Position numbers and translations under genes: made by a program
Notes under the pieces: generated by a model
What the model was told of the DNA's origin: nothing
What the model saw: the letters and a program-made list of their open reading frames with translations, nothing else
The model's database searches: none
NCBI GenBank assembly: GCA_965178125.1
Contig: OZ237768.1
Span: 558,001-622,000 of the forward strand
Source: Bilabrum cf. latius
Taxonomy: Eukaryota
Reading direction: 5' to 3'
DNA length: 64,000 nucleotides
Shown here: one piece after another, positions 33,318 to 64,000 of the stretch
Layout: every line of letters begins with the position of its first letter
Position numbering within the stretch: the stretch's first letter is position 1

Positions 33318-36300
33318 TCAGTCGTTGAATGACCACGCGGTACCCTGCCCCGGCCCAGATGCCACCACGCCGCCCGGGCCCGTCGCCCCCTGACCCTGAC
33401 CCCTTGACGAGTGCTGGGCGCTGCCACCGCCATCCGACGTGTCATCCTGGGATACCTTGGAGGAGGTCGCGCTGAAGTTCGCCAGGCGCATGGTGGGCAA
33501 AGGCGACGCCTCCGAGCTGCCGGTTTGCCCACCCCCATGGCTGCCCCCGATCCCAGCTACCGCGCGAAGCGGACCCTTGCCACCACCGTGCGATGCACCC
33601 AGCCTCGGCACGTTCACCACTCCGTCACTGGCCCTCGACACGCTCAGCCCGCCGGTTACAACCGATGATCCCGCCCTGGAAGACGTGCCCTGGCCCCCCA
33701 CCATCCCGGACCCCATCCCGGCAGTAGCGGCAGTGGCGGTGGAGTGGCCCCCCGTCATGGCCATCCCGCGCCGACCCACAATGGGTGACGCTGCCACCGC
33801 CCCGGTGACCATGTTCCTGCCGGCACCCGCGCCTGATCCACCGGTGGAGTCGTCGCCCTGGACTGTGTGCATGGCGTTGGCGCGCGCCGCGGCTAGCCGC
33901 TGCAGGAACGTGGTGCTGCCCTGCCCACCGCTGCCGCTGGCCGGTCCCGCACCGGTATTGATTCCGGATCCGTGAGGCCCCACACCCGCGCCCGCGCGAG
34001 CACCATCGTGCGATGCACCTCCCCCAGCGCTGTTCTCCGAGGTGAGGCTCTTGAAGTGCCCCCCCTGGCTGGTGCTGCTGGCCCCGCCCCCCAAGTCCTG
34101 AGACTCGGTGTTCCCTGTCACCACGGCACCGGTGGATGAGAACCCCCCATTCTGGCTGCTGCTTGCCTCCTGGGACTTTCCCTCCGAGATGCCTCCTCCC
34201 CTTCCTCCTCCCGTCCCGCTGATGACCGCAGCCTGCTGCTGCTGCTGGGCCTGTGCCTGCTCGGCCCGTTTCCTCTTCTCCTCCTCGGCAGCAACGATCC
34301 TCCTGGATGCTTCGGACAGCTGTGCCCTCCCGTACCTGTACAGCAGCAGGTAGTACGACGTGGAAAATGAATTCCGAGTCCTCGTCAGCACCGCCTCCGT
34401 GACCTTGTGCCTGTCGAAGCCGAGCTCCCCCATCTTTCTGAGCGCTGCTTCATACAGATCCCTGGCAGGGTCGTCCGAGATCAGAAGAGATCGATCCAGG
34501 GGCATGGACAGCTGCCTGATCACTGCAGAGGCGGCGGGGGCGCACCAGGGATGCCTCCTGGCCCTACCTAGGGTGATCCGTTTCAGCGGGTCCGGGTGCA
34601 TCATCCTGCGGATCAGGTCCTTGGCGGCATTCGAGAAGTGGTCCGGGAACCGGAGCTGCGCCTGGGCGATCCGCTTGTATAGCTCCGGATAGGTCTTTGC
34701 CGTGAACGGGAAATGCCCGGCGAGGCAAGCGTAGGTCAGCACTCCCAGCGACCACACGTCCACCGGCCGGCCCAGGTACTCCTTCCTCTGGACGATCTCG
34801 GGTGCCATATAGGAGGGCGTGCCGCAGAACACCTTGAGCTTCTTTCCAGGGTCCTTGCAAGCCACGCTGAACCCGAAATCGACGAGCTTCATGTCCCTGT
34901 TGGAATCGAAGAGAACGTTCTCCAGCTTGATGTCCCTATGGATGATGCCCTCCGCGTGCATGTACTCGACCGCAAGCAAAATCTGCAGGAAGATCCGTCT
35001 CGTCTCCGCCTCTGCAAGCCTCTTCCTCTCTTTCACATAGGTGCATAGATTGCCACCCCCGGAGTATTCCATCACGATGTGGACCCTCTTCGGGCTGTCG
35101 ATCACTTCCAGCAGCCTCACAACGTGCGGGTGGTTAAGCCGCTCCATGAGCCTTATCTCCTGCTGCACCCGCTTCCAGTGGGCGGGGTCCTTCATCTTGC
35201 CTTTCTCGTACGACTTGATGGCGACCTTGGCACCGGCCAGCCTGTGCCAGCCCAAGCGAACCTTCGCGAACGAACCCTGCCCAAGGACCTTCCCGAACCC
35301 GTAGAAATCCGTCGTGGCGCGGCCGTCGAACGTCGACCCGGCCACCTGTTTTTTGAGCCGCTGCCGCTGCTCCCATTCCCGCTCCCTCTGCAGCTACCGC
35401 ATCGAATCCTTGTCGTCTCCGTGCGCGGCGCCGCTGCCGCTTGCGGAACCTCCCGCGGAGGCACCCGGTCCGCCGGCACCGGCACCGGCACCGGCACCGG
35501 CACTAGCACCGTTGGCCGAGGAGGAAGCGGACTGCTGCGACGAGGCTGACGACGAGGCGGCGCCGCCGCCTGAGGGTGCCGCCGAGGACGGTCGCGCGGC
35601 GCCGGTTCCGCTTCTGCCCGTAGAGGCAGGCTGACCCGCGGTCGCCGCCGCCGATGCGGCCGTGGCACCGGCGGACGATGACTACGCCGATGGGTCGGAA
35701 GCCCTGCCCCGCGCGAGTGCTGCGGACGTCCTCGTGGCGCTGGCCGACTTGGGCCTCGAGGCGGTTCCGCTGCCGGATTGCGCGGCGCCGCTGCCGCCGT
35801 AGCCGAGGCTGGTCTGAGAGGACGAGCCCCGGCCGCTGCGGTCGCGCGCGGCGCCGGTTGCGGAACCGCTGGCGTGCCTTGGTGGCGCCGCGCTTCCGCT
35901 GGCGCTGGTTCCGCTAGAGGCCCTGACGCGACCCGCCGAGGCGGCCCTCCGCAGGTGCTGCTGCGCCTGCATCGCACTCGTCATACCGGCACCACCTGCC
36001 ACGGGCGGCGTGTCACCATATTCGGCACCGTGGCTCGGGCCTCCGTCCCGGGCCCTGACCGCCCCCCTCCCCGCGCTCTGCGGGCGCATGGCCCTGCCGG
36101 TTCCGCTGGCCGTCCGCGCGGCGCCTGATCGCACCGCCCATGTTCCCTGGGAAGAACCGCTCTGAGCCCCTGCGGAACCGGCGCCGCGCCCTCTGGAGGA
36201 GCTGGACGCGGCGGCGACGGCCGCTTCCGCTTCCGTGACCCCGCCAGACGAGCCGGTTCCGTCGGCTGCTCGTGCCCTGGCGAGGGCGGACAGGCGCCGG

Positions 36301-37514
36301 GCGAGCTCGTCGGCGTCCGCGGCGCCGCGCATTTGGTGCGCGCGCTGCGCGCTGGTTCCGCTGGAGGATTGCGCGGCGCCTCCAACCGGGCCGGTACCGC
36401 TGCCGTTGCTGCCCCGGCGGTAAGCCGCCGATTGCGGCCTGCCTCCAGCGGAACCGTGCGCGGCGCCTGCACCCATCCCCACACCGGTTGCAACCGCGGC
36501 CTACTGGTTCCGCTGGCGACCGGCGGAGCCTGGCCGACCCCCTCTCGCGTAGTACGGCGCCGCGCCTGCGGAACCGGAGCCGTCCTGCGGAGCGCCGTAG
36601 GCCGTGCCCTGCAGCGCAGTGCCGTGCAACGCGGCCACGGGGCCGCGTCCCGCCGACTGATGCGCGGCGCCGGTTCCGCCGCCGTAGCGCCCCGCGGCCT
36701 GCGCCTGGGCCTGCACGTACCCGCGACTGCCGCCGCCTGCGGAACCGGTTCCGTAGCCGTACGCGGCACCGCCAGCCCCGCCCGTGCCGCCCGCCTGATG
36801 GCCCCCATAGACACCCCCCCTGCCCCTGCTGGCAGATCCGGGCCTGCCTCTGCTAGCACTGCCGGGTCTCGATCCCGCGCCCCAGCCCGCAGAAGCGCCC
36901 GTGCCGCCGTACTAGCCGTAGCCGTGGACCACGCCAGCACCACCGTGCGATGTACCTCCCGCCGAAGGCACCGCCCAGCCGTTCCCTGCACTGCCGCTCG
37001 ATGCAACCCCCCCAGCGCCGCGCCTTGTTCCCTGCGCCGAGGCAGACCGCCTGCTGGCTGACTGCGGCCGGCCTCCCACCGCTCCGCCGTAGGTTCCGCT
37101 ACCGCGGTGCGCGGCGCCCCGCTGGTACGCCGCACCGGCAGCTGATGGTGCCGTGCCCGGACGCCCGCCCCCGCCACTGTAGGCGTCGCCGTAGGACGGC
37201 TAGGTTCCGCTGCCGCGACGCGCGGTGCCGCCCCTGCTGCCCTGCTGCTCCCCGTAGCGCCAGCCCCCCCCAGCGGAACCTCTCTGCGCGCTGGCACTGC
37301 GCGGCGCCAGTCCGTACACCTGCGCCATCCTGCTCTGCAGCGACTGGTTGTCAACGCCCCCACCACCACCGCCTACGATGCCGCCGCCGCTGCTGCCGCG
37401 CCCCTGCCCTGCCCCCGCTCCGCCGTAGTAGGCGCCCTGGCCGTAGGCTCCCCTGGCCGCTCCTCCGGCGCCCTGCCCCTGCGATGATTCAATTGAATTA
37501 GTATTCTTAATCAT
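33318..37514 (-). CDS. CAMK-group (MARK/SNF1-like) Ser/Thr kinase with UBA-like segment and long low-complexity N-terminus
   Basis: Motifs LGQGSFAKV, VAIK, HRDIKLEN, DFGFS, CGTPSYMAPE and DVWSLGV. ORFs 37200..37514, 36501..36716, 35682..36482 and 33318..35345 are one frame joined by TAG (37200, 36912, 36501, 35682, 35394). Ends TGA. Confidence 0.88.
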
Positions 37515-38332
37515 GGATAATGGCGGCGATAGACGGCATGCTCACACGCAAGGTGCACTGGTGGGGATGAGGAGCGAAGTGGATGTTCCAGACGTGGTGT
37601 GGTCGGTAGATGCGTTTCAGCAAATAAGGCGGCTTATACGGCACACCACTGTAGTAAAGAAAATATCCGCGCTGCTTGCTTTCCCAGGAAGCGCTCTGAT
37701 GCAACCGACCCTGAGCAAGCCATTGAACGGACAGCACTCCGCTGCCCATGATCCACCAAGAAAAATTGAAATCCGACACTCACCCGTCTATTTCGCGAAG
37801 CTGATCGCGATCTAGCTGCGGAACCAGGCCGCCCACCGTACATCTGCGCAGAAGTGGCTGGGCCGCGATTGGGTCATTGCAAATTGCCGCTGTATGGCCG
37901 TCATCCCGCTCGTCGCAACGTTGAGTCTATGTCTGAACTTGCCGAACGTCCACTGGTGTATTAAAACAGATGATGATTGTACGCATACGGCTCATATATG
38001 TTTTAGCCCCATACACTGGCTGCATCAAACCGCGAATTGGCTCACTTTGGCGGAGCTGGGCCTGGAGCGGGTCCTTGTCCCCGTTCTCATTGTATGGTGA
38101 GGTGACACGTAGAAACAGCCACCAGCTTAAATAAAATAGGTCAGAATGGGTAGCTCGTGCGTTGAACGGGCTTGAATAACCCCAGAACCACCAGCTGCCA
38201 ACGACTCGACCGGAGGCGGTTTTAAGGCGGTTGTAACCAGCGATTAGCAGGGTAGTGCGTACTTCTGAATCAAAGCAGATTCGAATAGTAATTGTATTTG
38301 CTCAGCTACTCGGCTTAAGTCACATTGGTGAA

Positions 38333-44776: not shown

Positions 44777-47419
44777 ATGGGCCCTCAACATTTATCATAT
44801 TTTCTCATGATTGCATTCGTTGTGATATCGCGCGGCAGCCGAGTCTTTCAACGTGATGTCAGTGTCCCAGGCCGCACCGATCCGCTTAACATCGTTGTGA
44901 TCGTTGTAGACGAGTAAGGAAGATTGCACAATGTCATTGATTCAGTTTACGTTTGAAAATAGATTTGATAGATTTCGTAGGCGTTGCTACCGAGCACACG
45001 GTCTACCGACCACCAGTTGCAGTTAGCTTCCATTCGCTTCGCCTTGACGCAGCCTCGGGTACAACGACGTTGGATACCAGGGATCAATGGTCCCTACGCC
45101 TAATATAGACGCCATTTCAGCAGAGGGTATCCGATTCTCTCGGTTTCACGTGCAGCACGTGTGCAGTCCGACCAGGACGTCGCTCCACATGTCGCGGTAT
45201 CCGTGGCGCGACGGTCTCGGAGGTTCTGTTATCGTGAATGGCGTGCCATCCGATCTTCCGATCAACTACACCATTTTGCCGCAAGTACTTCGGCGCGGAT
45301 CCATTCGTGAGGCCTTTCTTGCAAGTGCAGCTCGAGCAACGGCAACATGACGCGCAGGGCTTTTGGTTCTGGGTCAATGCATTCCTCTCGCATCATGATC
45401 TCCCCGTGCATGCATGAGTTGACGCCATGTCGCAGAAAGCACGATGGCTCTCGGCAAATGGGACGCCGGCATGACCTACAACGCCAGCACTCCGATCCGG
45501 AGGGGGTACGACACGTTTCGTGGGTACTACGACGCAGATGAGGTGAGCTACATGGATACATAGATAAAGTTCGAGTAATCTTTATTGCTTGAGCATGGGT
45601 TTGGCTGGGTCTGCAGTAGTCGTGACGTCGCGGATTCTCCTTCCTTGGCGTGCGTCGGGCTGCACCAGTAACCGGTACAACGCCAACGTACAACTTGCCC
45701 CCGTTGACTTGAGCATCATGATCTATTTAATGACGCAGGACTACTTTACGAAGAAGTGCGGGGGCGCATACGTGAACAAGACCGACCACAAGCGCGTGCT
45801 GTGCGGCGGCATCGACTTCCACAACGACACTGTGGCAGAGGGGTTCCACCCCTACGTCGACGGGCAGTACTCAACGGACATATACAGCCAGTACTCCCAC
45901 CTGCGAGTGCACGACTACAACGTGGGCGAAGACCGACGAACGTTCTTCCAGTACCTGGCCTACCAGGCGGTCCACGGCCCCCTCGAGGCCCCCGACAAGT
46001 GGGTCGAGCCAGTCTGCAACCAGAGCATCAAGCCGGACACGCCGGGCCCCGCCAACACCTCCGTGCTAAACCGTCGGGTGCTCTGCGGGATGCTTCGGGA
46101 CGCAGACACAGGGATCGGCACACTCATCACAGAGCTGAAGCGGTCCAACTCCAGCAGCGTGGTGTTCTTCATGGGCGATAACGGGGGCCAGACCCACACG
46201 GGGGGGAGCAGCTTCCCGTTGAGGTAAGGTGCACTTATGTATTATTGGTTCCCGCCCAGCCTTAGACAGCACGACTCTAGTTTAGTAGCTACATCCTGTG
46301 CATCACTCGTCACACCGCAGGGGCAACAAGGCCACGATGCTCCAGGGCGGATTCATGGTGCCGGCCTGGCTCTGGTGGAACGGGCAGGACGTGCTGCCCG
46401 ACTCGCTTCGAGGAACAACGAATGAGAACATGTACCACGTCACTGACCTGCTGCCCACCCTGGCCAAACTGGCAGACGCGCCGCTCGTGGAGGGGCTGAG
46501 GCCGGAGGAGACCGCCGACGGTGCCTTCGCCGATCGAGCCGTCCTCGAGTCCATTGCAAGCGGCAACCTCTGGAAGAATGAAGGTGAAGGGTAGATGTCG
46601 GTCCAGGGAACAGCGTACGGTGCTGTACTACCGGGATACGGCAAGTACGGATCTATCTCCCGGGATCGAGCCCGAGCGCTGCTAGCCAGGGAACAAGAGG
46701 GCATGCTGGTCCCCGGTCTCAACATGCAGGCCATCGACGGGCACGACATCTGGCCCTCCATCGTGGACCCCGCCAACCGCGATGCCAATCCACGCACGGA
46801 GATGGTGCTGCAGGCCTACCCGTCCACAACTTCGGCTGAGATCATCGGGGCGGGTCACGAGCCCAGCAGCCGAGCCCGGCTCATGACCCGCGAGGACAGG
46901 GAGTACCTGGACGCGATCGAGGCTGGCCTGCAGGGCGGGTCAATCCTCGAGTCCAACAGCAGCATGAGACAGTTCGGGTACCGAGGGGGAGTGGCAAGCA
47001 GCAACGGTGCGCACTCGGACAATCCACCGGTGGGCTTCGAAATGCCGACCCAGTGGGCCTACATCGACGTCAAAACTGGGCTCAAGCTCATCGTGGGAAA
47101 TCCCGGCATCGGCAAGAATTCAGGGGTGCCCCCGGAGCCGCTGCCGCCCATCAACAAGACCCCAACCGGATGGGTGACGCAGCTGGGAGGGTACGAGCAG
47201 CCCCCCGCCAATCCTGACCGCGTCTGGCTGTTCAACGTGTCTGCCGATATAGAGGAGCGGCATGATCTGCATCTGTCTATGCCTGACGCCGTCAGCGAGC
47301 TCGTGGCCCGCATGCAGGCGCAGCCCAAGGTGGACCAGAGGACAGCGTCCTTCGATCCGGAGGCGTGTCCCTCTCGCCGGGGCAGCGAGTTCTGGATGCC
47401 ATGGAGGCCGGATCCGTGA
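44777..47419 (+). CDS. Arylsulfatase B/I/J-like sulfatase (introns 44914-45052, 45307-45435, 45543-45738, 46224-46320)
   Basis: Signal-like N-terminus. Motifs NIVVIVVD|DLGYNDVG, TPNIDAI, CSPTR, GKW, RRGYDTFRGY, YLAYQAVHGPLEAP, GDNGG, PLR|GNK, HVTDLLPTL, DGHDIW and WLFNVSADIEER. One TAG at 46592. Ends TGA. Confidence 0.9.
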
Positions 47420-47598
47420 ACGGATTATCATTGCATGCTTTCATTTAAATTATTTTCTGGTCCTGGAGGGAGGGGTCGCTCCAAGTAGGCCAGGATTCGC
47501 TGGAACTGTCGTTGCGACCAAGTCTTCTACACCATGACGGTCGCAACAGAAATTCTGCGCTACGACAATGCACAGCTTTTCATATTCGCCAGGGAGCA

Positions 47599-50500
47599 AT
47601 GCGAGCGTCGTGTGGCGTATGCCCTTGCAACGTAACTGGATCAGGCCTTTCGCGAGCTATACTGTCTCTGGTTTACGGTTTAACTATCTTGGCATCGCTT
47701 CAAGTCGCAACGTCCCCATTTCCGGGGAGAGCACGAGTGGCTCGGTTGACGGAGCCCCTGCAGGAAAGCTCGGTAACATTTTTCTCTTTATTGGTAGTTG
47801 TGATTCCTGTCGCTATTGCCTGGACGTTTGAGGTGTTGGCGGCTGCAGTAAGCTCTGCTCAGCAAGAAGACCCGCTCATGCATTCGCATTACACGACGTC
47901 AGCAGCCGTGTCTAGCGGTGGCCATGCCAAATTCCATCAAAATGCCAGCATTAGAAAGCCTGTTACTGCTGCTGAGAAGGAGGAATCATCAAGCTTTCCC
48001 CACTATGCCAAAACTGACAGTGTTGAGACATCTGGATCACGGGGGTACTGCTGCTGCGGTACATCGGCTACATTCGTGACCAGAGCTGCATTTGCATCAC
48101 TTTGTTGTATCAAGATGGCAAGGTCGTGCTGCTGGTAGGCGAGTGCAAGCCGCAGCGAGTGCAGGGTCCATCCTCCTGTTTGCTGCAATAGCAGGAATTC
48201 GAGGCCGCTAGACACAAGAGCGGCAAGTTCAAGTAGTAAGTGCCACTGGTCATATTGATCGTTTGATTTAAAAATTACTGTAAATTCCGCGTAGCGAGAT
48301 ATTTGTACTTGAATTTCGCAGACGACAAGTCGCCGTGGGAGTTGGCTGAGATTCGGATGGACCAAGAGCTTTCTTTGCACAGTGGCGTTGCCCCTGGATC
48401 ACTTTCATTGTGCAGCTGCTGCTTTTTTTGCTGCGGATTCAGTAGCTTGTCATGCTTTCGGTGTGACGCAGAAGTCAACCCGTCCCAGGTTCGAGCGTGC
48501 CAGCACTACACCGATCGCGTTCCGGACAGGGTTTCTCTGCACAAAGATCGCTCTCGCAGCGCAGAGGCGCTGAAATATGGCGCAGGTAAGACCCACCCAG
48601 AGTAGGCTCGAGCCTATGAGCCAGCAAACCAAGTGACAACTGCAGCAGCCCCATCGGGTGCATCGCACGAGCGCGCGACGCCGCGCACGCAGCACCGCGA
48701 CGATTCCAACATGGACGTGGATGCCGCCCTAGAAGACTGCGTAAAGCTAAGTTGGGTCGTTGAGGAGGACGTCTCTTCAATGGGCCACACCTAGACCGGT
48801 TCCGTAGCCCCAGTGGCAGGCAGTCCAGCAGTCCCGGGCCGTACGGTTCCCTAGAACGCTACGGTGGAAACTGATTCGCCACTGCCCGTGCCCGGACGGA
48901 ATCTCTTGTCATTGCGAGCAGCTACAGCTGATGGGCTCCGACAGGTGGCCCGAAGCATTATGCCTTTGGTGATTTTAGTCTGCATCACGGCATGGGGGAT
49001 GTTTCTTGATCTTGCTCTGAGCCCAGGTAGGGGTCAGCTGAAGGTAATTGTGGTTTGGAGCTTGGTGGCGGTCTTGTGCCCGTTCGACTACGATCGCATG
49101 ATCGTGCCATTTACCACCATCCACTATTCGTACATGATCTGGACAATCGTCATATTTGTTGCAGTGGCAGTCGCGGGGGACGCGTGGCCATTTGGAACCG
49201 TGGATCTGGACGCTACGCCGGAAGATGTTCGCTACGATTTCTTCTCGGCCCTGGGCCTGAACGGCATTGGACACGTGCTTAACATCGTCGGGTACGGGTC
49301 TCTTGGGAACATCATCATCGGAATGATGCTGGTGGCTGAGCAGGAGCTGCTCCTTGTTCAATCTAGGAAGGCACGTACAGGTCTTACCACCACGCTGCAG
49401 CGTGCCAAGCAGCAGCAGCGCACAATCATCGACTCGGTGGCGGACCAGGTCCCCCCTTTCGCCAGGGAGTGCATGGATGCTGGAGTGACCGCATTCGAGA
49501 CCAGGCCGGTCATACTGACCGTGTCATCACAACGAATGCAGTCAGCCGACGCCGAAGCTGGCGCAGCATTTGCGCTGTCAGGCGGCTCCATTGCTGGCCA
49601 TAGCTCCATTGAGGTTCTTGCTGAAGCGCTCGATACTCCTGGTGACAACGATAAGCAACAAACCGACCAAGTGCCTCATGATGGCGTGCTTGTGCGCCTA
49701 TTTCGGTACTTCAACATGTCCATCCAGCAAACAGCTAATGACTGGGTCGGCTCTGCCAGTCTTGGGGTACTAACGTTGAAGCAGATGGAAGGACTGCAGC
49801 GGTTCAGCTAGGTCAATTGGACTGCAGTGGGGCAGCACACCGAGATAGACAAGCTTCACTTGCGGAATGGTTCCGCATCGTACAGGTCTAGGAAATCCGT
49901 ACCAGAACCAGGCATACCGAAGGAGGGGGCCACTGTAGCCACGTGGACAGCTGCTGTAGGCATGCGCTCCCCGGTGCGGTCTGCCAGCGAGCGCAGGCGA
50001 CCAGAAGCCCGACTTTCCAACCTATTTGCCTGCATCGCCGCGATCGACCGGTTTGCTGCCGGGGCGATTCGAGCATCGGCGTATGGCAGGACCTTGCACG
50101 GCGGCTTGTCGTACCCGTCTTCGTCACAGACTGCCATGGTGGCTGGGCTGTTAGGCTTGCAGCAACAGCCCCAGGAGTGGGCCGTGTTCGGGGGAGGAAC
50201 CGAGGCAGCAGGTCGTCTTGCGACCTCGAATCGCTTCTCTTTGGACTCGTTGTCCATGCCTAGTGGACGACGTGGACACTAGGAAAGAGGTGCTGCAACG
50301 TGCCGGCATGCGCTATCTGTTTCTATAAGCACGCACTCTCGTCTGACGCAGCAGCTACAACGTCTGCTTGAAGTTGTTGCGGCTGCAGCTTAGTGGCAGG
50401 TAGCGGTGCGGATGGGCCTGCAGAGCCGTGATCAATCAAATGAGGCGTACTACGATCGCGTGGTATATAGTACGCAATCTGGATTACGAACGTAGTCAGA

Positions 50501-53500
50501 ATCTCTGGAGCAGAGCCCCATTGAAACGTTCTACCTGCCGTCTGCTGCCGGGCTCAATAAGCTGAGGAATGCCTTGCGCTGTTTGCTTGATTGGTTCGAG
50601 TCTGCACAACTTCAACGGCCAAGTGGTGGGCATGCGAACGACAACAAAGTCGCAACGCCAACGGTTTCATTAGGAGCAGTAGCCAAGGGAGCAGCAGCAA
50701 CTGAGACGAATAAGGCAGCTCCTCGAATTGCTGCTGTGGCGGAGCCCGTGATGCATTTGTTCCTGCCGTGCACTGCTAGAGGCAGAGGCACCCGGAGTTT
50801 AAAGGGTGACCGGGCTACCAGTGGTCGTATGACCAGTGCAAGTCTCGGCTAGAAAAGTGTCGAACTTCGAGCCCAAGATGTAGCACGCGCAGCCGCAATC
50901 GTTGGCAAAAGCGTAAAGCATGGCGAACAAAGCGAGAGTGCTGAAGATTCGAGCCGCCGCATGTTTACCGATTTCCTTCCCAGTGCGCCTAGCACCAGTC
51001 CAGCCCCGCCATCTGGAATTGCCTCAGCACGTCACATCAAGCACTAGCCAAGAAAGCAGTCCACACTGCCTGTCTGGATTGATCGAATCATGAAGCGCGG
51101 CCAGTCGAATTCTGATAGTTCAGGATTTTCGATCGACCACAAAGGGCTGGAGCTAGCTGCCGAGAGTCAAGCTGTGACTCACCAGGCAATCCAACCTGTG
51201 AGCCGCGACAGCCATAGCTCCGGCACAGTGCTACACCTCATGTTTGGCAGCCAGAGTATCGACAATGAAGACCCTGCTGGTCTACCCGTGAGGTCAACTC
51301 TGATCATGTTGCTGTAGGGAATCGCGCACGTTTAGACCGCAGCGATCACTTGGATGCAGGTCGTCAACATGGAGGTGGCTGCAGGTCATGCAAGCTGGGA
51401 CGATGCAGCTTCAGTCCTACAACTATCCATCCCGTTCCTCCCACGGATTTTGTCGGGAGTTGTGATGCTGGCAGTATGGACCACGTGCACTACCGGCAAC
51501 CTAGTAGGGCTTCGCTTGGGAATGGCGGTTAACGCGATCGCTGTTGTGCTACACAGCCTGTCGCAGTTCATGTACGCAATGGAAATCGGCTCAAAGTCAT
51601 GTTCTGCGCGATTGCCAGTAGTGAACACGTCTGCTGGAATTTTGAGCGCGGTTTAGTTACAGATTGGAGTGCTTCAAGTGGTTCCTTTCACTCCACTAGC
51701 GGTTTTGATCACTGTCTCCGTCGCGCTCATGGTGCCCATGGGACCGTACGTGATACTGCAGGCGGCTCTTGAAGGCTCGTTTGTGCGCACGCAGAGTGAG
51801 GCACAGGAAGACTGCATGTTGGTGTGGGGGGCAATCCCGGTGGCACAAGGCCTCGACCGGTTCACGATCGCGACAACATGGTCTGTGTTTTCAGGCGCAA
51901 TGCTTACGCTGCTGTTCGTGGCACTTCGACTTCAGCAGGTTGACGCGTTCGCTCAGATGCTGCGTGCAGTGCAACAGCTATCTACGGAAGCCTAGGCAGT
52001 ATCCGCGAGGACTAAACAATAGCTTCAGGCGGCGGCGGCTGCACTCGTCCCGAAAGCAATTATATTGAGTAGATTAGATCGCGCGAATCTAGATGCCGGT
52101 CCGGGGTGGCCGCATACCTACGCAGATATGTCGCCTAGTTTACCACGATGGGACTCATCCACAGATGTGAGTTTCCGCAGTTCCTTGTTGCAAGTTGATG
52201 CCAGCGGGCAAGACATGCCGGGGCAAAGGGCAACGGAAAGAATCCAAATTTCATCGTCAGAGGGTTCAAAATGCTCTACCAGCGACGAAGACAAATCGTC
52301 GTGTGTCGTTTCGCTGAGTTTAACTGCGCCTTGGATTGATCTCGGCGACTCGATCGTGCTTACGCTCGTCCTGCACGGCTACGACAAGATTGCTGACCTG
52401 GCCGGGCCCATCGCCGGGATCGGCCTGCACCGCAGGATTGGGGCCGTGGTGGATGAGGTGTGTGCCGAGCATGGAGCGGTAAGGATCAAAAGTCCGCCCG
52501 GCTTGTTTCGGTTGGCTTGGTTCAGCTCGCAGCATGGTAGTAGCGATCGCCAGGATGGGACGGTCACACAGGCAGGTAAAACCAGAGGAATTGAGCAGCT
52601 GTAGGCGTGTACCGAGCTTGTCATCCGGGTCCAACGCGAGCTGCATGCCAAGTAGCTGCAGCTACTACCACTGGTTGGACTGGCATGCGGTCCGTCTTTT
52701 GCCAAGTGGATAGGGTAGGCCCCGGCGACAATTCTATATGAAGACTAGATGAGCGGCTCAGTTCCAGACGGTTTGCCATTCCGAGAAAGCTTCGTCATAG
52801 CTGAGAAGCTACACTCTGCATGGCTAGCCGATGTACGATCTGAAGGAGCAGGACGCCATCCTGATGGCCACCATGATGCGCCACGCTACAGCCAGACGAT
52901 CGACTCGAATGCTAGAAAGACGCCGCCGATGGAGTCCCTAATTGGCATCTCGGATGCTTTGCACCGAAGGATTGACGATGCCTAGGTGAAATCAATTCTA
53001 TCACTGGGCCGATTCGAGCCTCAAGCCGGACTCGAAGCATCATCAGAGACATTGGCTGGCGTTGCACAGTTTCACGTGGCTGCAGTGAGCACTTCGGTTC
53101 GGGGCGTCCGAGATCAATCAGTTGACGCTGCAATCGCTGCGCGCACTAGCTCATCCAGCAGACCTTTTCGAGCAAGCAATGATTCTCACGAGTTGCCTCG
53201 CTTCCACATGCAGGACTTTCGGCGCTTGAAGGTGCTGGGCGAGGGTGGGTTTGCCAGGGTCTACCTGGCCGTACATGTGCCCACGGGACGGAAGGTCGCG
53301 CTCAAGATCAGTAGGCGATCCACTGGTGTATTCGAGCAATCTCGTCGCTCATCGCAGTCCTTCTCAGCCGGTAACTCCGAGTAGCGCGCGTCATTGAAGG
53401 CTGACGTGGTTCGTGGCGAGATCCTGGCCCTGATGCGGTGCGCTGTCCACGGCGTGCCGGGGGTGTGCCGGCTGGAGGGCGTGGTGCTGGGCGAGGGTGA

Positions 53501-55201
53501 GGTGGGTCTGGTGCTGGAGCTGGTGGATGGCGAGAGCCTCGCTTCATCGATGCGATCTCGAGGCGGGGGTCGGTAGCGCATGCGGGAGGGAGCAGTTCGT
53601 GTGGTGGCTCGTCAGCTTGCGTGTACGCTGTGCCATCTGCACGAGGCAGGGGTGGTGCACAGGGACGTAAAGCCGTCCAACATTGTGCTGGATTCGGCCG
53701 GATGCAGCCGGCTCGTTGACTTTGGGCTATCCGTAGCTGTCGGTTCGAAATTAACCAGCCGAGCTGACGCAGGTGCCTCTATGCACGAGCTCCTGCGTAG
53801 AGCTTAGAATCATCAGTGGGAAGGAGTTGAGCTGGACAACCATGAAGACCTGCGCATGGCGATGCCTGCCTTTCCGGCTTTGGAAGGGCCACGCTCAAAT
53901 GGAGACCGAGGGGACAACGCGTGCAGCAGTATTCTGCTGGTCGCCAGTGACAAGGACACAGGAAAATAGCAGTGGGTAGCCGCTGTCGCCGCATCTGTGG
54001 AGCAGGCGCTGCAGTCTCCCGCTGTATCGGGAGCTTTGAGCCGAGCAGCCTCTACCCGGTCAGCTATGCAGATGATTGTGTCAGACCCGCTGATGTACGA
54101 CGTGGTTGTGGTCGCAGCGGATGGGTCCGAATCTGCGTCCAATTCAGTAAGTAACCCCGCTGGTGGTGGGAGTGCACAAAGTCCGGACTAGAGTGCGAAA
54201 TACCGCGATCGAGGCGTCTCCAAGCTGGCTTTACTATTGGCAAGTCAGCAGTCCAGATAGTCAGTAGCTAGTGCGCCCCAAGTTAAGAGCACGAAGCTTG
54301 TGGTGCTGTCTGGCCCGACGACTGGCTCACCTTTTGACCCTGATTCTGGAGATAGAGATGCAGGTACCTGGACGTTGCAATCATGCAGTCTCAATGACCG
54401 CAATGATGTGGAACTCCATGCAACATCAGCATGCAAGGCACCGACTGATGTTGGCCCAGCGCTTATGGCGTATGTTATGGATGGGTCAAGGGGTGTCTCG
54501 ACTCTTCCTGAAGCGGAGCCGGAGACAGGAATACTCGGTGATGATTCGTGTGATCGCCCACTAGTTTCGGCGTCTCATGCACGGGCGTTCACATCGCTGT
54601 CCAGCTGGGCGCAAGCTTGCGCGCGATAGCAAAAGGCTCCAAGCTCAGACGAGAGCCCAGCTTTGCACTCCGTCGGGTCTAAACATGACCATGCGGCGGT
54701 TCAGTACCAAGGTCAGCCAAGCGACATGGGCCTTGGGGCGGCTAGCATTCCACCAACACGCGGGGATCGACCGCCCACCGGCAAACGTGGCGACGGCGGG
54801 GTGCTAGTCTACCGCGAGAAGCAGCCCTTCGTGGCAGGCATAGCAGGCACTCCTCTCTTCATGGCACCTGAGCTCTTCAAGCACCAGGGGCAGCGGGCCA
54901 GCGACTACTGGTCCATGGGCGTGACGCTGTTCTGGCTGCTGGCTGGCAGGATGCCGTTCACAGGGCCGACCAAGCAGGCCCAGCTGGACGCAGCCAAGCG
55001 CGGCATTGTGAGCTGGCGGCTGCTGCCAGCTGGCTTGAGTCCGGAGTGCATCGACACTTTGAGGGGTCTTCTGGAGGTGGATGTGGAAGCGAGGTATGAC
55101 GCGAGAGTTCTAGCGGTGCACCCGTGGCTGTAGGCGACGCTCGTGACAGCTGCAGGTGCTGGCATGACGTCTAATGATGCGCGCGGGATTGCTGACCGTT
55201 C

Positions 55202-55266
<65 letters not shown>

Positions 55267-56117
55267 GTTCAACCAAAGGGAGGCAGCACGGGCCTGCCAC
55301 GGACAGAATCTTGCCAAGGCACCACTGGGCCAAAAATGACCCTTTCACTCCTGCTCAATCCTTGGCGGGTCAGCCTGGAGCAGTATCCGCTGTAATAGGG
55401 ACAATCAAGGACCCTCAAGGACATCATGTACCGCTGTCAGAGCCGAACCTATGGATCGTGCCGGTGATTCCGGGTCTAGAACGCGTTGGATCCTCCGTCG
55501 CTGAACTCGAGTGGATCGGATCTATAGTGCAGGAGTGGAGTCTCTCTTCTGTCCCGCAGCACGCCAAGGACTCGTAGAAGGTGTCCAAATTCAGCAAGCG
55601 GGTCAAAATGCAGGCGCGAATCGATGCAAAAATGGCGGATGTACGAGCTGTGCTGTCCGTGTGGTGCAGACGACAAATGCTGAGGCACAGGGATGGATAG
55701 ATTCTGAAGAGGGTGGGCAAAGCCGCCTCCAGCTTTCTGCCGCCGTCCATATGGGATGCCGCCAAGCGTGATCTAGAGGTTGCGGGCGTGTCAGCCAGGC
55801 GGGCCGCAGGCATGCTTGTTCAAGTGTCTCAACATGTAGACGATTACGCAAGCACGATCAGTGGAGATGCGCAGGAGCTGCAGCCCAACTCCAACGTAGC
55901 TAAACGTGGACAAAACGCTAGCGCATACATTGGAACTAGCCAAACAAGGGGTACAGTAGCGACTGCAGCAGGAGCAGTCGTCCCGAGGTCGAACCTGATG
56001 TCAATTGGGTATGGTCAGGCATCTTTGCCCAGCGTGGTCGAGTCCGACGAGCACGTGACCAATACGCACTCTGGCTCGGAAACTACGGGGCCCGAGGCAG
56101 CGCAAGGGAGCGATTGA
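47599..56117 (+). CDS. About 2,810-aa membrane protein: TM / cyclase-like / TM / cyclase-like / split Ser/Thr kinase (paralog A; intron 48236-48321)
   Basis: 17 track ORFs from 48303 to 56117 are in one frame; each ends in TAG except the last, which ends TGA. TM clusters at about 48960-49340 and 51420-51930. Cyclase-like motifs near 50140-50230 and 52340-52750. Kinase motifs LGEGGFARV, VALK, HRDVKPSN, DFG, GTPLFMAPE and DYWSMG. Confidence 0.78.
55203..55262. repeat. (GCT)20 microsatellite encoding poly-Ala
   Basis: Perfect trinucleotide run, in frame just after the kinase domain of paralog A. Confidence 0.95.
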
Positions 56118-57200
56118 TTGAAACGGGCTCGACTTGCTGACTGACGTGGATACTTCTTGCAGCAAGCTGCTAGATTATTCATGGATCCGGGCATCGATGA
56201 CTACGTTTGCTTGGGATCTGTTTGCTCATGTCCAAAGCACCCATAGTTTCCCAGTCTGCCACGTTCAGAGACCGTGGGTTTGATCGAAGTAGGGCTTCTG
56301 GGAGTGGCGACAGAACGCGTAGAGGTCGGGAGGACGAGCACAATCTGCAGTGCAATATAGGGCCTCTGATGTTGTCATATCAACGAGTGATCGGCGGCGA
56401 TATGCTGCGTCCGGAGCATGTGCTGTCAGCCCGGGCCGCCTTGAAAGCTGGCGAGGAGGAGGGGGTCGAGCTGCGCTTGCAGGTAAACTGTGACCCTATC
56501 GTTAACCGAGGGTTTTGCCGTTCTGCTCCAGCAGGGAGGTGCTATCGCGTGGTCTGCAGGGTCGGCGGACCTGGATCGTTCGAGCGACGATGAGACCTTC
56601 GGCAATGGTCGCACGACGGTGGCGCTACAGACAGCCATCGAACGGGCGCTTCATCCCAAACGAATGGTGATACATCAATTGTAAACACCACTTTTTCAAT
56701 GCACGTCGACATCCCATGCCCCTAGAACCGGCGCAGATGCGCGGGCGGGACCCAGATCCATGCATGACGCACAGGATGCATTAATGAAACCAGAGCGGAG
56801 TGTCCCAGCCCTGGGCGCTGGGCCAACCGTCGTGGATGCGATGGTGTACCCCGGGCAGGGGCTAGGCCTGCTCCAAGGTGGCTCCGGACTTCCCCTGCTA
56901 ACTAAACTTCACGGAGTCGGCGGACTGGGAGCTGGCAGTATGAGCGCGCTGGATGCAGCAAGCGTTGCCACTGACCCGCAGTCAATCTGGCAAGGCAGTG
57001 CGGGTCACACCTAAGTTACCTATCTCGGCGTTGAGGCATGTCGTCGTGATCGGGGACCCCGAAGGCAAAGTCGTGCTGGATGGCGTGTTCAGGACTCAAC
57101 TATAGTAGTTTTTACTTCAATTTGTATCCAAAGCTACGTCTGTTTGCAGTTCAAGGCATGCATTCAAAAATCGCAGCTACTCGGATCGATCATAGCTTCC

Positions 57201-60200
57201 TTACTCGCCAGCACCGGGTCCTGTACCATCCGGATCCTCCTCGTCTTCGAGGCTACCCCCCTCGGGCATCCACTCGGCGGTTTCGGCCACACTGGGCAAG
57301 CCAGCTCTCCCCTTACCAAGTGCAGACCAGCCAGACCTGCGGCTCATCTCCCTAGCCTCGGAGGCCTCATCGACCACTGATGCCAGGTCTGCCTCGCTGC
57401 TCGCCCCGATCCCAACTACAACGTCACCAGAGAAGGAATACCTGTCCTTCCGCACAGAGCTGGCGAGTTGGGCCGGTCTTGGCGAGTCAGTGGCACCACG
57501 ATAAAGCTCTCTAAACCGGAATGACTGGTCCTTGCATCTGGCAAGCATGATTTCAGCCTTCTCGCCTGATACACCGACCCGAGCGAGGTCAGCCTTAGCT
57601 GCCGACCGTCTGCTCACAAGCACGGCCTGGCGACCTGCCGATGAAGAATACACCCGTTTCTCTTGTGGCCCCAACTGCGCTGCAGTCGTATCTAGACGGA
57701 CTATGTTTCGACGAGCGAAAACAGCCAGGACAGCCATGACGTCAAGTTTCTTTGCCCTGAGTCGAGCCTGCTCCTAGATCCGCTGGCTGTGTCGCTTGGC
57801 TCGACTCCGAACTCTCGCCTTGCCAACGATGCTCGACAGCCAGTGCAGCTCATCGTTCTCGTCGCTGCCTGCCCGACTGGTCGGTGCCGATACCATGGTG
57901 CAGCCGTCCAGTGGAACAAGCTGGTCGTGAATCCAATCTCTTGCAAGCGGCGAGGCAGTCGGCACTCCTCGAATCAATCCAGCCTCCGGGTCGGTTACGT
58001 CGAGGCCATTGCCTGCATCACCTTCCAACCCCGAACTCCTGAAATCGCTCGTGTTGGAGGATTCGGTCCCGACCAATCGCGATGATTCGTTCGACTGCTC
58101 GCCATCTCGGCGTCCTTGTCTCTCTGCCAGCCGCTGCTTGCCGTTTGCATCGCGTGATGCTTTCTTTACGACGTGTGCGGGAAGCTATCTCCAGAGTTTG
58201 GAGCCGCTCGCATCCACGAACGGGTCATCGAGCGACCAGCGAACGGATTGCAACGACCGCTGCACAGCCCAGGCCGCATCACTTGAATGAGCAGGCGATG
58301 CAGCCGGATCATGGGGCGCCTTCATGTTCTCCAGCACACGGCGTGCTCCGAGTGGGTCTCGAGGCAGCAGCCACGGGTGCACCGCTAGCACTCTCGCGTC
58401 ATACCTCGCTTCCACATCCACCTCCAGAAGACCCCTCAAAGTGTCGATGCACTCCGGGCTCAAGCCAGCTGGCAGCAGCCGCCAGCTCACAATGCCGCGC
58501 TTGGCTGCGTCCAGCTGGGCCTGCTTGGTCGGCCCTGTGAACGGCATCCTGCCAGCCAGCAGCCAGAACAGTGTCACGCCCATGGACCAGTAGTCGCTGG
58601 CCCGCTGCCCCTGGTGCTTGAAGAGCTCAGGGGCCATGAAGAGAGGAGTGCCTGCGATGCCAGCCACGAAGGGCTGCTTCTCGCGGTAGACTAGCACGGC
58701 TTTGTTTGATGTCATCGTTCGCTGCTTGATTTTGGATCTCTCCGCCGCATTGCCATCGGTTGCAACGGCAGCTGCTCTAGACATCGTTCTGGAGGCACTA
58801 CGCGCCCATTCAGAAACAGCGGCGTGTAGTGATCCTGTATCGGGGTTTGCTTCAGAATCTCTTTCAGCGGCTCCCTGTGAGCCAGTCTGCGATTCACTCC
58901 GCGAATACAATTCATCAAGTTGCTCAGCCCAAGCCGTCCGCTGACGTGGCAGCTCTGCATCAGGGCCAGCAGAACCCCCCGGGTGGCCGTGGCACGCGGT
59001 CGTACCTGATCGCAGTTTTTGCTGTCGAGAGCTGTTGAGGACTGGTCGTCTCATTGCGGTGGAATAAGCACGGACGCGACTAGTTCTAGACTCTGCAGCT
59101 GCCTGCGTCTGCACGCCATCACCAATCAACACAGCTGGCGAGCGCCTCGTGGATATTCCTTTGGCATTATTGGGTTCAGATATGGGTCTGCTTCCCGCCC
59201 CTAAATCAGATTCCGAATGATCCCGTCGTGCCTCGTCATTCTGCTCGACGCGTTGAAGCGAGTCCATGTTACTCGGGGACCAAGTTGTCACACGGACTGT
59301 CGATTTGCTCTGCTGCGCTACTGCGGCCTGAGCGGTGCCTGTACTGGAAGCTACCAAGTCGGGCTTAGCCTGTCGAGAATCAGCGAGAACGATCCTTGCA
59401 AATTCTTGCACGGACATCAGTGTAGCCTATTCCACATTGTCGGCCGATATCAATTTTCCTTGCTCTGCTGCACTCGTCACGATGTCCTCGTCAAAGTGAG
59501 GGGCGGCTGGCCCATCGGTCGCACAATCAGGATCGGCATCGATATTGGTGCCATCCGTGCCGATCCTCGTGGACAACCTCTATACCTGCAGTCTTAGAGT
59601 CGGGTCAGGCTCCGACGCAAGCAACGCTTGCGAGCGTGGCAGCAGTCGCGGCACATCAAATGCGGTCCCAGCACCTGACGCTGGGCCAGCTCCGCCTCTA
59701 GCCCCGTCAGGGTGAGCGTGACCTACCCCGCAATCGACGAGATAGGCGACACTTCGGGGCAGCAAATGGCTCAAATGCTTCTCTGGAGATGCTTTGGATT
59801 GATCTGGCCTGCGCTTGTCGTGGCTAGGGAATGTCACATCTTCAAGAGCAGCCTGGATCAGCTAAGATCGGTTGCGACTGGTCTTCTCTCTTTGACGAGT
59901 ATGGCCCATACGCTAGGTTCCGCTGCTCGCAGCCGATGCAGATTGTGATCCCCCATGCTCGGCGGTACCCCTCAGCACAACTATGGTGTCGAACAAGTCA
60001 CGCTCAGTGGAAAGCAGTGCAGCTGCCGCCTGCATGCCTCGCACCACTTGCACCGCACACATGCTACCGCTAGATCCCACACCCTTCTCAAGCTCATCCT
60101 ATAGCGCCTTACTGGTCCGCCAAGGTATATCATCTGCCGCTAAGCGTGAACGTCTGGTTTGATAAACTACGAGCAATACTGAATGGTACCGCGCGCTAGA

Positions 60201-63200
60201 CTTTCGAGCGAGCACCACCGGGCGGCGAATGCCACCAGGACCCAGCGGAGAGAAGGCAGGCAAGACCAGATGGAACTCGTTGTGGGTGGTGGCATCCTGC
60301 ACCGTCCAGTCACCAGCCGCACTGGATGTTCGCTTTCGCCTTTTGGAGCTTCGATTTCGACTGTGGCCTGCCTTCGTCTTCTACTTGGAGGCATGCTCGA
60401 AAGCAGCTCCATTCCCATCTGAGCCGTGACCCGAGCTTGTCGATAGTCCAAGGTCCACCAGACGACTGTATCCGGCCGGATCCAGCACAATGTTCGACGG
60501 CTTCACGTCCCTGTGCACCACCCCTGCCTCGTGCAAATGGCACAGCGTACACGCAAGCTGACGAGCCACCACACGCACTGCACTCTCCCGCATGCGCCAA
60601 CGACCCCCGCCTCGAGATCGCATCGTTGAAGCGAGGCTCTCGCCATCCACCAGCTCCAGCACCAGACCCACCTCACCCTCGCCCAGCACCACGCCCTCCA
60701 GCCGGCACACGCCCGGCACGCCGTGGACAGCGCACCGCATCAGGGCCAGGATCTCGCCACGAACCACGTCAGCCTTCAGCGATGCATGCTACTCGGAGTT
60801 GCCAGCCGAAAAGATGTGTGACGAGTGATATTCCTATCGGGATCTACCAGTGGATCGCCTGCTGATCTTGAGCGCAACCTTACGTCCCGTGGGCACATGT
60901 ACGGCCAGGTAGACCCTGGCGAACCCGCCCTAGCCGAGTACCTTCAAGCGCCGAAAGTCCTGCATATGGAAGCGAGGCAACTCTCGTCCAGTTTGTCTGT
61001 CGTGGTGTCTGTCGACTACAGCTGCACTCGTCGGAAGACCATCCACTGTTAAGCGGTGGCCCGGTCCTCGAACCACAATGACCACCTGGAAGCTGCTTGG
61101 GGACAAAGTGCTGCTAGTAGAGCGGCTTGCAGCAGCAGGCTTGCTGCCCACGATCAGCTTAACGTAAGCGGGAAGTGCACTTCCGCAAGCAGCCACAATC
61201 TTTTCTCCAGTGACAGTTTCGAAGCATAGGCTCTCAAGCCGATTGCCATCTTCACCAGCACTCTCACAGTTACTTTGTCGTGACTTGCATGCACGAATGC
61301 TTTGCCTCACCCAGGCCTCAAGCCGGATGTCAAGCCTTTCATTCTCAGTCTTAGCCGCGCGCGCCTAGTCGGAGCTTGCGCCTAAGGCGACGCGCAGTTG
61401 CTTTCGCCACTTTTGAAACCAGGTATTGGTGCTGATAGACACCATGCCAATAGGCAAGCAGTTCACGTCACTGATGTGGCCGTTGTGCTGCACATCAGCT
61501 GTACACACCAAACCGAGGCCTTGCTCCGGCAAAGCAGACGCTTGCAGGCTACTGTGGGTGACTCCGAGTGCAGCCCAATCAAGCAGATGGACCTGGCGGG
61601 TCCATCGGAGCTTTGCTCGCCCGAAGCGTGCGGCTAGATTCAAATGCTACAAAGTTGTTGCTACTTTGGTGGACTTGAAATCAAAAGATGCGCCGGACAC
61701 TTCCGAATCGGCCATGGTGTGTGAAGCCTAAACGCAAGCCTGGTCTGTGCCAGCCGTAGCTCCGTGGATCTATTGATTGGCCGTTTGTGGAGCAGGTGAT
61801 AGAAATGCAGCGAGAAGAGGCAGCCTGTCCCGCAATATGCCCTCGAGTGCTCGAGGCAATCCGACGAGCGACCCCTTCATGCCCATGCCTACGGCTGTGC
61901 CATTGATCCGGTGCATCGACCTGGCAATCCTTTGGCTCGCCTCGAGTGGCCTCAGCTGGCTGTTTCTGTCCACATCCTCGTACAGTATCTTAGCCGGGCC
62001 AGTGCCGATCCATGTTGCTTGCACCGGACCGGCTGCCAAGCCTATCTGAGGCCGCAGCTGTATGCTCATGGTACGCAGCTGGGATGTGCAGGTACTGGCG
62101 AGATCTACAGCTGCCATGATAGTAGCAGTCAGCATTCTGACGGATGGTCGCATGACGCTTGAGGTGCCACCCGACAATCGTCCATCTTCCGGACGGACAC
62201 CCATAGCTCCCCTGGGCAACCGAGTTGGCTATTGGCGAAACCATGCAAGCTTGAACGTTCCAGCGCTACCCTTGATCCTTACCGCTCTATACTTGGCGCA
62301 TACTGCATCCACCACGGCCCCAATCCTGCGGTGCAGGCCAATCCCGGCGATGGGCCCGGCGAAGTCAGCGATCTTGTCGTAGCCGTGCAGGATGAGTGTG
62401 AGCACGATCGAGTTGCCGAGGTCGACTGCAGCCGCTGACCGCGCCAGTGATTCCGTCGATCTTGCTACTTCAGATGGCAGTTCGTTTGGCAGCAAAAGTC
62501 CAAGCTGACTGAGTGCGTCCCGACTTAACGAATCGCTACTGGCTGACCGTGTCGGTGTCGTTGCGTCCAGCTACCTCTAGTGGATGACTGCTGCAGGCAT
62601 GATGGCTGCTGCTGCAGACTTGAGCTACTGCTTGCTGGCCTGAACAAGCTCGCTGTACGCAACCAGGGTGCTCCTGATGCGGAGCACTTGCTCCTGGAGC
62701 GTCTGGGTGTCAACGATACGACGCGACAGTATCATTACCATGTACAGAGCTCCCGTGAAGATCGCCACGATACCCCCAAGCGACACGTCAGCGGGGTCAC
62801 TATCTGATCCCAGCACTAGGGAGCACTTATCGAGTCTGGTGTTCTAAGAAAGGCCAACTGCCTCTCGGATCCACACGTACAATCCGACGGGAGTGCTGAG
62901 TGCGACCAACACTCCGACAGTCAAGATCACGGGCCAGTTCCCATCGCATACGTGGAGCACGCCCACCAGCAGCTGGATTGCAACCAGTACCTGAGGCGCT
63001 TGATTCGACTGGCCCAGAATTCCTGCACACGACCCTCTAAAGGCCTAGAAGAGGAAGAGAAACTGGTACAGCACGTGCGAAATGTGAGCAGCTCCGTATG
63101 TATATAACGCACAGGCAGCACTGACCCTTTCCTACCGCATGGTCCACACAGCTCCAGCAACGCTCATGGAAAGGCCGCATGCGAGCAGCGGCAAAAATTT

Positions 63201-64000
63201 CAAAAGTATCAACAAACATGCTTGTGATTCATCCCAGGACGCTAGTCCAGATGCAACCTCGAGATTGAAAGCCTTCGCCCATTCAGTCATTCCGTTCTGC
63301 AGAAGTGCCACGCCCGAGAGCAGCAAGAGAAGACTCGAGCCAGCCGTGGTGCCTACAATTCCTCTGGCGTCGTCTTTGCGATCTAGGCTAGGTAGAACAT
63401 GCGCAGCGACTGACCCGCATCCCTCCGTCTCAGCTACACTAAGCTATTCCGCTTGCGGATAGCAGTGCCCTGCAAACGCCCCCATGTTCAGCGTGCCTGC
63501 ACCAATGTGGGCTTTACCAAGCACTCGTTGGAGCCACTTCGGCATGTCCTTTCCCGCCGTATCCCTAAATTTGCTTGGCGTAGGATAGACAGATTCATGA
63601 AGGTTGCTTACCACGGTGGCGGACGGCAGCAACGTGTCGTCAGGGCCCCCAGATAGATGCTGACCAGACGCGATCGCAGCAATTAGCACGTCGACTGCAC
63701 GCTCAATGGACAAGGCCAGCGGCTCTTTCGCTGTGAGAGTGATATCGTCATCGCATCGTAGAGGAAGAAACACGACCCTGCCAGCTGCTGCCTGAGCATC
63801 GTCACCTGTAGTGTGCGTACTAGAGTCGCTGACTTTGCCCGAGTCGGATGCGGTCCCACGCTCCAGCGGCCTGTCTCCGGTGGTCTGTAACAGATAAGGC
63901 ATATTGGGATCGTCGCTGGAGCTTTTTTTGGCGCGGCTGCTTTGAGGATAAGGGTGCCGGGCGGCACTGGATCTACCTGCATCCACAAGGCGGCCAGTTG
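57201..64000 (-). CDS. Paralog B of the TM / cyclase-like / split-kinase protein, 5' end outside the window
   Basis: 13 track ORFs from 63444..63986 down to 57201..57737 share one frame, joined by TAG where checked, and end at TAA 57201. Shares near-identical cyclase-like and kinase blocks with paralog A. Has DLG in place of DFG. Confidence 0.78.

Follow-up and report, generated by a model that had tools for sequence, protein, structure and literature searches.

Animal receptor guanylyl cyclases such as GC-A/NPR1 are single-pass membrane proteins in which an inactive kinase-like domain accompanies a homodimeric cyclase that delivers the output. The 12-helix guanylyl cyclases of alveolates, oomycetes and bicosoecids carry two class III cyclase domains, C1 and C2, each placed behind a membrane block and associated with stalk helices, and occur with or without a P4-ATPase (PMC7858053, PMC13466520 and PMC5447177), and the role of their membrane region is termed unknown in the abstract of 10.1101/2021.12.01.470738. 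Here we describe a gene at 47599-56117 (+) of a 64,000-nucleotide stretch of DNA (contig OZ237768.1, positions 558,001 to 622,000; hereafter the window) whose predicted product shares the two class III domains, membrane blocks and stalk helices of these cyclases and continues into a Ser/Thr kinase.

We read this product, with a probability of roughly 0.55, as a membrane receptor-like Ser/Thr kinase of ~2,810 aa, in which a catalytically dead C1/C2 pair would relay a membrane signal to the kinase. The gene belongs to a family of paralogues in the same genome, and its architecture is real and apparently undescribed, being assembled from known parts. The first-pass annotation of this DNA knew of no family with this domain order, and neither the order nor any dead 12-helix cyclase-kinase fusion was found in the open literature, subscription papers and supplements lying outside that scope; the supplements of PMC4758236 and PMC13466520 may list related architectures.

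Gene structure and genetic code

As the first-pass annotation had proposed, the gene is visible only when TAG is read through. Under translation table 11 the region 48267-56117 (+) yields short frames only, whereas with TAG read it forms a single frame 2,616 codons long, in which TAG occurs 29 times and neither TAA nor TGA interrupts the sequence. In the two remaining frames TAA and TGA together number 64 and 81, and the longest run free of TAA and TGA in 200 base shuffles is 410 codons. The main exon (48322-56117, +) lies within this frame, with its 29 TAG read as glutamine, and ends at a TGA.

In columns of the family alignment that are at least 70% conserved, TAG stands opposite glutamine in 14 of 21 cases, compared with 18 of 34 for CAA and 117 of 134 for CAG, and in twelve family frames TAG occurs 368 times in total, TAA and TGA not at all. 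The genome encodes a tRNA with a CUA anticodon at G000:C23:907607-907679 (genome:contig:position); its D-arm is tRNA-Gln-like by eye, its overall identity being no nearer to Gln than to Tyr or Glu tRNAs. The conserved columns and this tRNA support a predicted nuclear code in which TAG encodes glutamine, with TAA and TGA as the remaining stops. Read-through of TAA or TGA was rejected. Were TAG a stop, the region would instead comprise several small genes or a pseudogene, and the presence of these proteins in databases as fragments only could be taken in that sense; however, such fragments are the expected product of gene callers halting at TAG, the TAG codons fall within conserved domains facing glutamine, the CUA tRNA exists, and unrelated genes of the window are also whole only when TAG is read, so that this alternative is scarcely credible. 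The recoding conceals genes: all 32 family matches in databases are fragments of at most 407 aa.

Nuclear UAG=Gln codes have been described in Iotanema, Protocruzia and phyllopharyngean ciliates (PMC11687900), and none was found for bicosoecid-type stramenopiles in the open literature. The lineage is likely a bicosoecid-type stramenopile, judging from a P4-ATPase-guanylyl cyclase fusion in the genome, reported only from alveolates, oomycetes and bicosoecids (PMC13466520), and from mitochondrial tRNA and gene content: a 38-kb mitochondrial contig carries a UCA-anticodon tRNA, atp1 and a piece of nad11, and bicosoecid mitochondria use table 4 and carry atp1 and nad11 (PMC6723347).

The claim of one gene over 47599-56117 stands for the long frame from 48267 but not as a single open frame, because the ATG at 47599 sits in a different frame and a GT..AG stretch is needed to connect the two; joining both frames across 48233/48236..48321 gives a protein of 2,809-2,810 aa. 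The probable first exon (47599-48235, +) comprises the ATG, a two-helix membrane hairpin (~47656-47829) and a Cys-rich loop, as indicated by hydropathy and by an N-terminal profile of 12 paralogues, which among the 575 open frames of the window matches the 47599 frame with E 1.4e-4, the next match displayed reaching only E 0.14. The candidate intron (48233-48321, +; 86-89 nt, donor at 48233 or 48236, acceptor at 48321), for which a frameshift is the alternative, contains stops in all three frames at a G+C content of 36%, and its removal restores the reading frame. It is similar in length to a 97-nt GT..AG intron at 46221-46319 in the neighbouring sulfatase gene, which is spliced in run X5. A DNA-like contig of run X2 is identical to the window over 46000-50156, with zero differences, so the frame break is genuine DNA and no assembly error.

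Cyclase-like domains and the split kinase

Hydropathy alone suggests a possible layout of six helices, C1, six helices and C2 (6TM-C1-6TM-C2): in the first block two peaks are followed by three further clear ones, with a sixth helix likely, and the second block has six peaks. All features lie on the + strand. After the hairpin, the remainder of membrane block 1 (48957-49367) shows three clear peaks in family-averaged hydropathy (residues 243, 294 and 346) and a likely fourth helix, placed by eye on the alignment, followed by a coiled-coil-like helix. Pseudo-cyclase 1 (cyc1, C1-like; 49419-50402) precedes membrane block 2 (51294-51947), whose six family-averaged peaks fall at residues 1021, 1062, 1094, 1134, 1155 and 1210, and a helical segment with pseudo-cyclase 2 (cyc2; 52029-53021) follows.

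The class III cyclase fold of cyc2 is firmly supported by structure prediction. An AlphaFold model of residues 1350-1585 of the protein (P0001), made with 13 sequences, has a predicted local distance difference test score (pLDDT) of 80.8 and a predicted template modelling score of 0.79. Foldseek returns 163 matches at E<=0.001 (best 3.5e-7, probability 1.00), of which the listed rows are all class III cyclases, the GC-A/NPR1 cyclase domain being among the matches, and VIA-align gives Z 16.6 with a root-mean-square deviation (rmsd) of 3.0 over 163 aligned positions. The cyclase-fold similarity proposed by the first-pass annotation is thus found; every motif that it quoted occurs in the sequence, and in the hhalign alignments each falls on the cyclase element to which it had been assigned.

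For cyc1 the fold assignment is weak when the domain is taken alone and clear through its paralogues, because distant paralogues match both the family profile and the profile of the genome's true cyclases. The top VIA-align match is adenylyl cyclase II C2, with Z 7.9, rmsd 5.5 and 131 aligned positions, at a level where caution applies since Z below 8 is common; the 50 rows consist entirely of cyclase, GGDEF and other palm folds. With hhalign, cyc1 matches C1 at E 0.01 and score 25.7, shuffles against the pooled profile reaching up to 20.8, and against own-genome profiles it scores higher with C1 than with C2 in all 11 domains tested (best E 4.5e-10). PF00211 has 29 matches in the genome, none at the 14 close members and two weak ones (E 0.02 and 0.06) at distant members, and sequence-profile searches of the PDB with cyc1 and cyc2 gave nothing significant, the best cyclase rows having E 0.21-0.48.

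Two Asp residues, one Asn and one Arg, together with a pair of base-selecting residues, are needed for class III catalysis (Table 1, PMC6005667). Across the family the first metal-binding Asp is present in none of 24 members and the second in 4 of 24, the register being unreliable in five rows with insertions; at the N..SR and base sites, the Asn occurs in 0/23, the base-selecting Cys/Asp in 0/23 and the Arg in 8/23. As controls, five cyclase domains of the same genome were read, one of which was dropped (anchor mis-hit), and the first Asp is present in 4/4 and, at the fixed position, the second in 3/4. The P4-ATPase cyclase of this genome carries Asn, Arg and Cys in its C1 half and both Asp in its C2 half, and Halocafeteria cyclases likewise have the Asn and Arg in the first domain (PMC5447177). 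P0001 bears Val1368 and Gly1412 at the metal Asp sites, together with Ala639, Glu646 and Arg650. The suggested loss of the metal-binding Asp was therefore borne out, and that of the N..SR residues only in part, since Glu646 replaces the catalytic Asn and Arg650 retains the motif Arg. The cyclase site appears dead in all members read. That the domains might still be active cyclases by means of other residues is very unlikely: the fold is retained and the second Asp survives in four members, but the first Asp and the Asn are missing from every member, and both Asp from this gene.

The cyclase cores are nevertheless under purifying selection. In the closest pair, the proportions of nonsynonymous and synonymous differences (pN/pS) are 0.08/0.29 and 0.05/0.24 in the cyclase cores and 0.19/0.31 and 0.25/0.39 in the loops, and in each of the four pairs compared the cores have a pN lower than pS, three of these pairs being near saturation. 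Conservation is highest in the stretches lining the cyclase interface, a structural role well established for class III cyclases. This conservation would also suit a dead C1/C2 pair that acts as a nucleotide sensor, binding GTP, ATP or a cyclic nucleotide at its interface and gating the kinase according to the level of nucleotide in the cytosol, with the membrane part as a mere anchor. The phosphate-binding Arg is retained in 8/23 members and PDB entry 6yii bears the title class III cyclase-like ATP-binding protein, but the base-selecting and metal-binding positions are lost and vary among paralogues, a poor fit to a common ligand, and we hold such a sensor to be rather unlikely. We continue to favour a pair that relays a signal from the membrane.

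A Ser/Thr kinase follows cyc2. The N-lobe and catalytic loop (53220-53726; Pfam Pkinase E 4e-38) contain the Gly loop, VALK, HRDVKPSN and DFG, and the C-lobe (54846-55136) GTPLFMAPE and DYWSMG, so that the motifs Gly loop, Lys, HRD-K--N, DFG and APE are complete; a C-terminal tail (55137-56117) includes a GCT (poly-Ala) tract at ~55205-55263. The kinase had been described as complete, which is true of its motifs but not of its continuity, as 373 residues split it between DFG and GTP..APE. This activation-segment insert (53727-54845), which holds a conserved alpha/beta block, has counterparts of 369-1,437 aa in 24/24 members. Throughout the family, HRD-K--N is present in 24/24 kinases, D-x-G in 24/24 (21 of them DFG) and APE in 23/24. 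When the family C-lobe profile is compared with the PDB, the best 60 of 419 matches are all AGC kinases (RSK, Akt, GRK, PKA, S6K and PKC), Greatwall being absent from the best 60 matches of the kinase profile searches; with the kinase of this gene alone, CAMK-group kinases rank first. On the family profile, the kinases are predicted to be AGC-like.

The conserved block of the insert, with its alternating strands and helices, looks receiver-like by eye. Compared by hhalign with 19 receiver domains of the same genome, it scores near or within the shuffle range (best E 0.06), and a PDB profile search with the insert came back blank; a receiver domain within the insert is unsupported by three profile tests. 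The receiver family PF00072 itself has 65 matches at ~50 genome loci, many of them clustered on contigs C12 and C42, and the predicted two-component repertoire of the genome is large. A PAS-like stretch lies ahead of the kinase in three distant members, with PAS_3 at E 0.028 in one and by eye in the others; no PAS was seen before the kinase of the gene studied here, and the family matches are weak (E 0.028 and 0.17).

Paralogues, homologues and neighbouring genes

When the genome (48.6 Mb, 111 contigs) was searched with the second cyclase-like domain, 14 loci were found, all with an identical domain order: membrane hairpin, loop, membrane block, cyc1, membrane block, cyc2 and split kinase. The order TM-cyclase-TM-cyclase-kinase given by the first-pass annotation is accordingly found across the family loci. 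The kinase C-lobe as query gave 34 matches, 20 of them new, and 11 of these were inspected, ten proving to be additional members and one an unrelated kinase; with nine C-lobe matches left out, the family counts at least 24 members. Twenty are single frames of 2,703-5,288 codons, one is covered in part, and three carry a break: the gene studied here and two others, interrupted by an insertion of 2.3 kb and within the kinase N-lobe, respectively. The insertion of ~2.3 kb, at G000:C5:1444933-1447166, interrupts membrane block 2 of its host gene and is probably a mobile element; the N-lobe break, in a distant member, is at G000:C5:951257-951346 and is possibly an intron.

A convergent paralogue with the same order (57201-64000, -; 3,534 codons) extends beyond the window to G000:C34:625805. 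It has DNA islands of 84-98% identity in common with the gene studied here (53190-55130 and 58368-62423), and pS is 0.10-0.37 in four islands of this pair vs 0.67-0.79 in the membrane blocks and loops. Such islands of high identity and low pS at the conserved cores point to patchy gene conversion. Between the two genes, a short repeat at 56516-56585 is covered to very great depth in the sequencing runs and coincides with numerous loose ends. Two RNA-like runs, each from a different study, have contigs that end at 57121-57125, ~80 nt beyond the stop of the paralogue, where a DNA-like run continues; this is a weak hint that these positions mark its 3' end.

Outside the genome, a HMMER search of 1.84 billion representatives gave 33 hits, of which 32 are fragments with 28-100% identity to the genome's members and the remaining one is an unrelated repeat protein. 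Ten of the 32 fragments were traced, to JGI, ENA or Logan records. One metagenome contig, L164 (52% G+C), carries two homologues in head-to-head orientation, whose frames stay open only if TAG is read; one spans the hairpin into the kinase and the other reaches membrane block 2, both being truncated by the contig ends. Identity is ~55% in the best block and the domain order is retained. No full-length homologue was found among 8,000 candidates by a word-indexed search, a method weak for distant relatives, nor any homologue of the kinase C-lobe among longer proteins at a cut-off of 1e-15, too strict a threshold; the kinase N-lobe gave 879 hits, of which none of the 120 listed matches the family cyclase or membrane profile, and a first metagenome scan gave no homologue. 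As a whole these searches are weak for distant relatives and leave other protists open, and the best reading is that the family would be lineage-specific.

Elsewhere in the window, an AAA_5 gene lies in two long frames, 4161-8195 and 8242-12180, with 46 nt between them, and a VWA-like stretch closes the second. These are probably one gene with an intron, which we take to be VWA8-like. A frame of 2,415 codons at 23263-30510 contains a long array of repeats of ~39 residues and, downstream of it, two Ulp1 protease (Peptidase_C48) stretches, and is possibly part of a transposon. At 33318-37541, a kinase, presumably CAMK/MARK-like, lies downstream of a Gly/Ala/Ser-rich N-terminus of 740 residues.

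Proposed signalling role and comparison with known systems

The same genome encodes true 12-helix cyclases together with the P4-ATPase-guanylyl cyclase fusion. Since, in addition, cyc1 is C1-like in 11/11 domains, the cyclase module most likely derives from such a 6TM-C1-6TM-C2 guanylyl cyclase. Homology suggests that this enzyme became fused to a kinase of AGC-like type whose activation segment held a long insert, and that its cyclase activity was lost afterwards. In the protein proposed here, a signal sensed by the membrane bundle would lead the helical stalk and the C1/C2 pair within the chain to shift conformation as in membrane cyclases, and this change of shape would switch the attached kinase, the output being phosphorylation with no step through cyclic GMP; paralogues would differ in their input. 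Canonical membrane cyclases were seen at G000:C16:30388-39276 and at other loci, including the P4-ATPase fusion, and two cyclase copies on contig C11 lack the conserved helix motif before C1.

The pseudo-cyclase could alternatively be a scaffold that dimerises the kinase or docks it on true guanylyl cyclases, carrying no signal. Class III folds are obligate dimer folds and the intact cyclases of the genome are available as partners, which favours this explanation, but the full series of C1, C2, stalk helices and the two membrane blocks is conserved in order, which already provides a C1/C2 pair within one chain; we regard it as doubtful.

Several points weigh against the relay from membrane to kinase proposed here. 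Control of the kinase by the cyclase module, a regulatory or dimerising role that the first-pass annotation had also proposed, is a prediction from anatomy, the loops between helices are short, and no ligand-binding ectodomain is evident. The AlphaFold model of cyc1 is poor (pLDDT 53) and has zero Foldseek matches at E<=0.001, and cyc2 scores higher with C2 than with C1 in just 6 of 11 domains tested. Pfam, run on the gene and on 11 isolated cyclase-like domains, finds the kinase only, PF00211, which the first-pass annotation had put forward as a check, hitting neither domain of this gene. The linker between cyc2 and the kinase has 308 residues here vs 399-504 in 11 close paralogues, and the frame is broken at the 5' end. 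A splice at 48233/48236-48321 was not seen in four sequencing runs, none of them on record as RNA, so the single transcript is a prediction that read contigs are unable to establish; one of these runs shows the spliced neighbour gene and depth in all 30 bins, and is rated probably DNA.

Some of these observations would also be expected if, within a genuine family, the gene studied here were undergoing decay, with 48233-48321 as a frameshift, which is compatible with a functional family. The break near the 5' end occurs in none of the 12 close paralogues aligned, the linker is shortened by 90-200 residues relative to 11 of them, another copy is interrupted by the 2.3 kb insertion, no spliced read was found, and the 36% G+C of the stretch falls within the range of minima that 89-nt windows reach in the frames of paralogues (0.36-0.45), at its lower limit. 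However, the stretch has canonical GT..AG ends, restores the frame and resembles in length the spliced 97-nt intron at 46221-46319, and 2,616 codons run without TAA or TGA with all kinase motifs intact, so that decay is unlikely. Preferring an intact receptor-like kinase, we may tentatively go further and consider a new class of eukaryotic receptor kinases, comprising dozens of genes in a flagellate lineage and hidden by an unreported TAG=Gln code, in which a 12-helix bundle would serve as sensor and the conformational switch of the cyclase would be wired directly to the kinase, with PAS-like and receiver-like inputs in some members; this is possible, though as a whole less likely than not. 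If true, it would furnish evidence from nature for a receptor role of the membrane domains in 12-helix cyclases. A membrane region kept under selection after the loss of catalysis also offers a direct test of its role, with kinase activity as the read-out.

None of the closest known systems operates in exactly the way proposed here. In comparison with the 12-helix guanylyl cyclases, to whose C1 cyc1 is nearer, the half bearing the base-selecting residues and the Asn/Arg, the family has lost the catalytic residues, carries a kinase after C2 and a long Cys-rich loop splitting block 1, and has no P4-ATPase. The animal receptor guanylyl cyclases, represented by GC-A/NPR1, are likewise membrane receptors that combine a kinase fold and a cyclase fold in a single chain, where either one or the other is a pseudo-enzyme, but the roles are reversed: in place of an inactive kinase and an active cyclase, the family has a dead cyclase and an intact-looking kinase. 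The amoebozoan cyclase kinases (43 in Physarum and 66 in Acanthamoeba) also form an amplified membrane family of cyclase and kinase, in which one cyclase lies between two kinases, whereas here two dead cyclases with 6+6 membrane helices precede one split AGC-like kinase (PMC4758236 for the amoebozoan proteins). Finally, Greatwall/MASTL and Rim15 are AGC kinases with several hundred residues between DFG and APE (PMC5342071, PMC8961621), ~500 aa in Greatwall, which is active after their replacement (PMC5342071), and the PAS-like stretch before the kinase in three paralogues recalls the PAS domain of Rim15 (PMC8961621); unlike the family, both are soluble and have no cyclase or membrane part.

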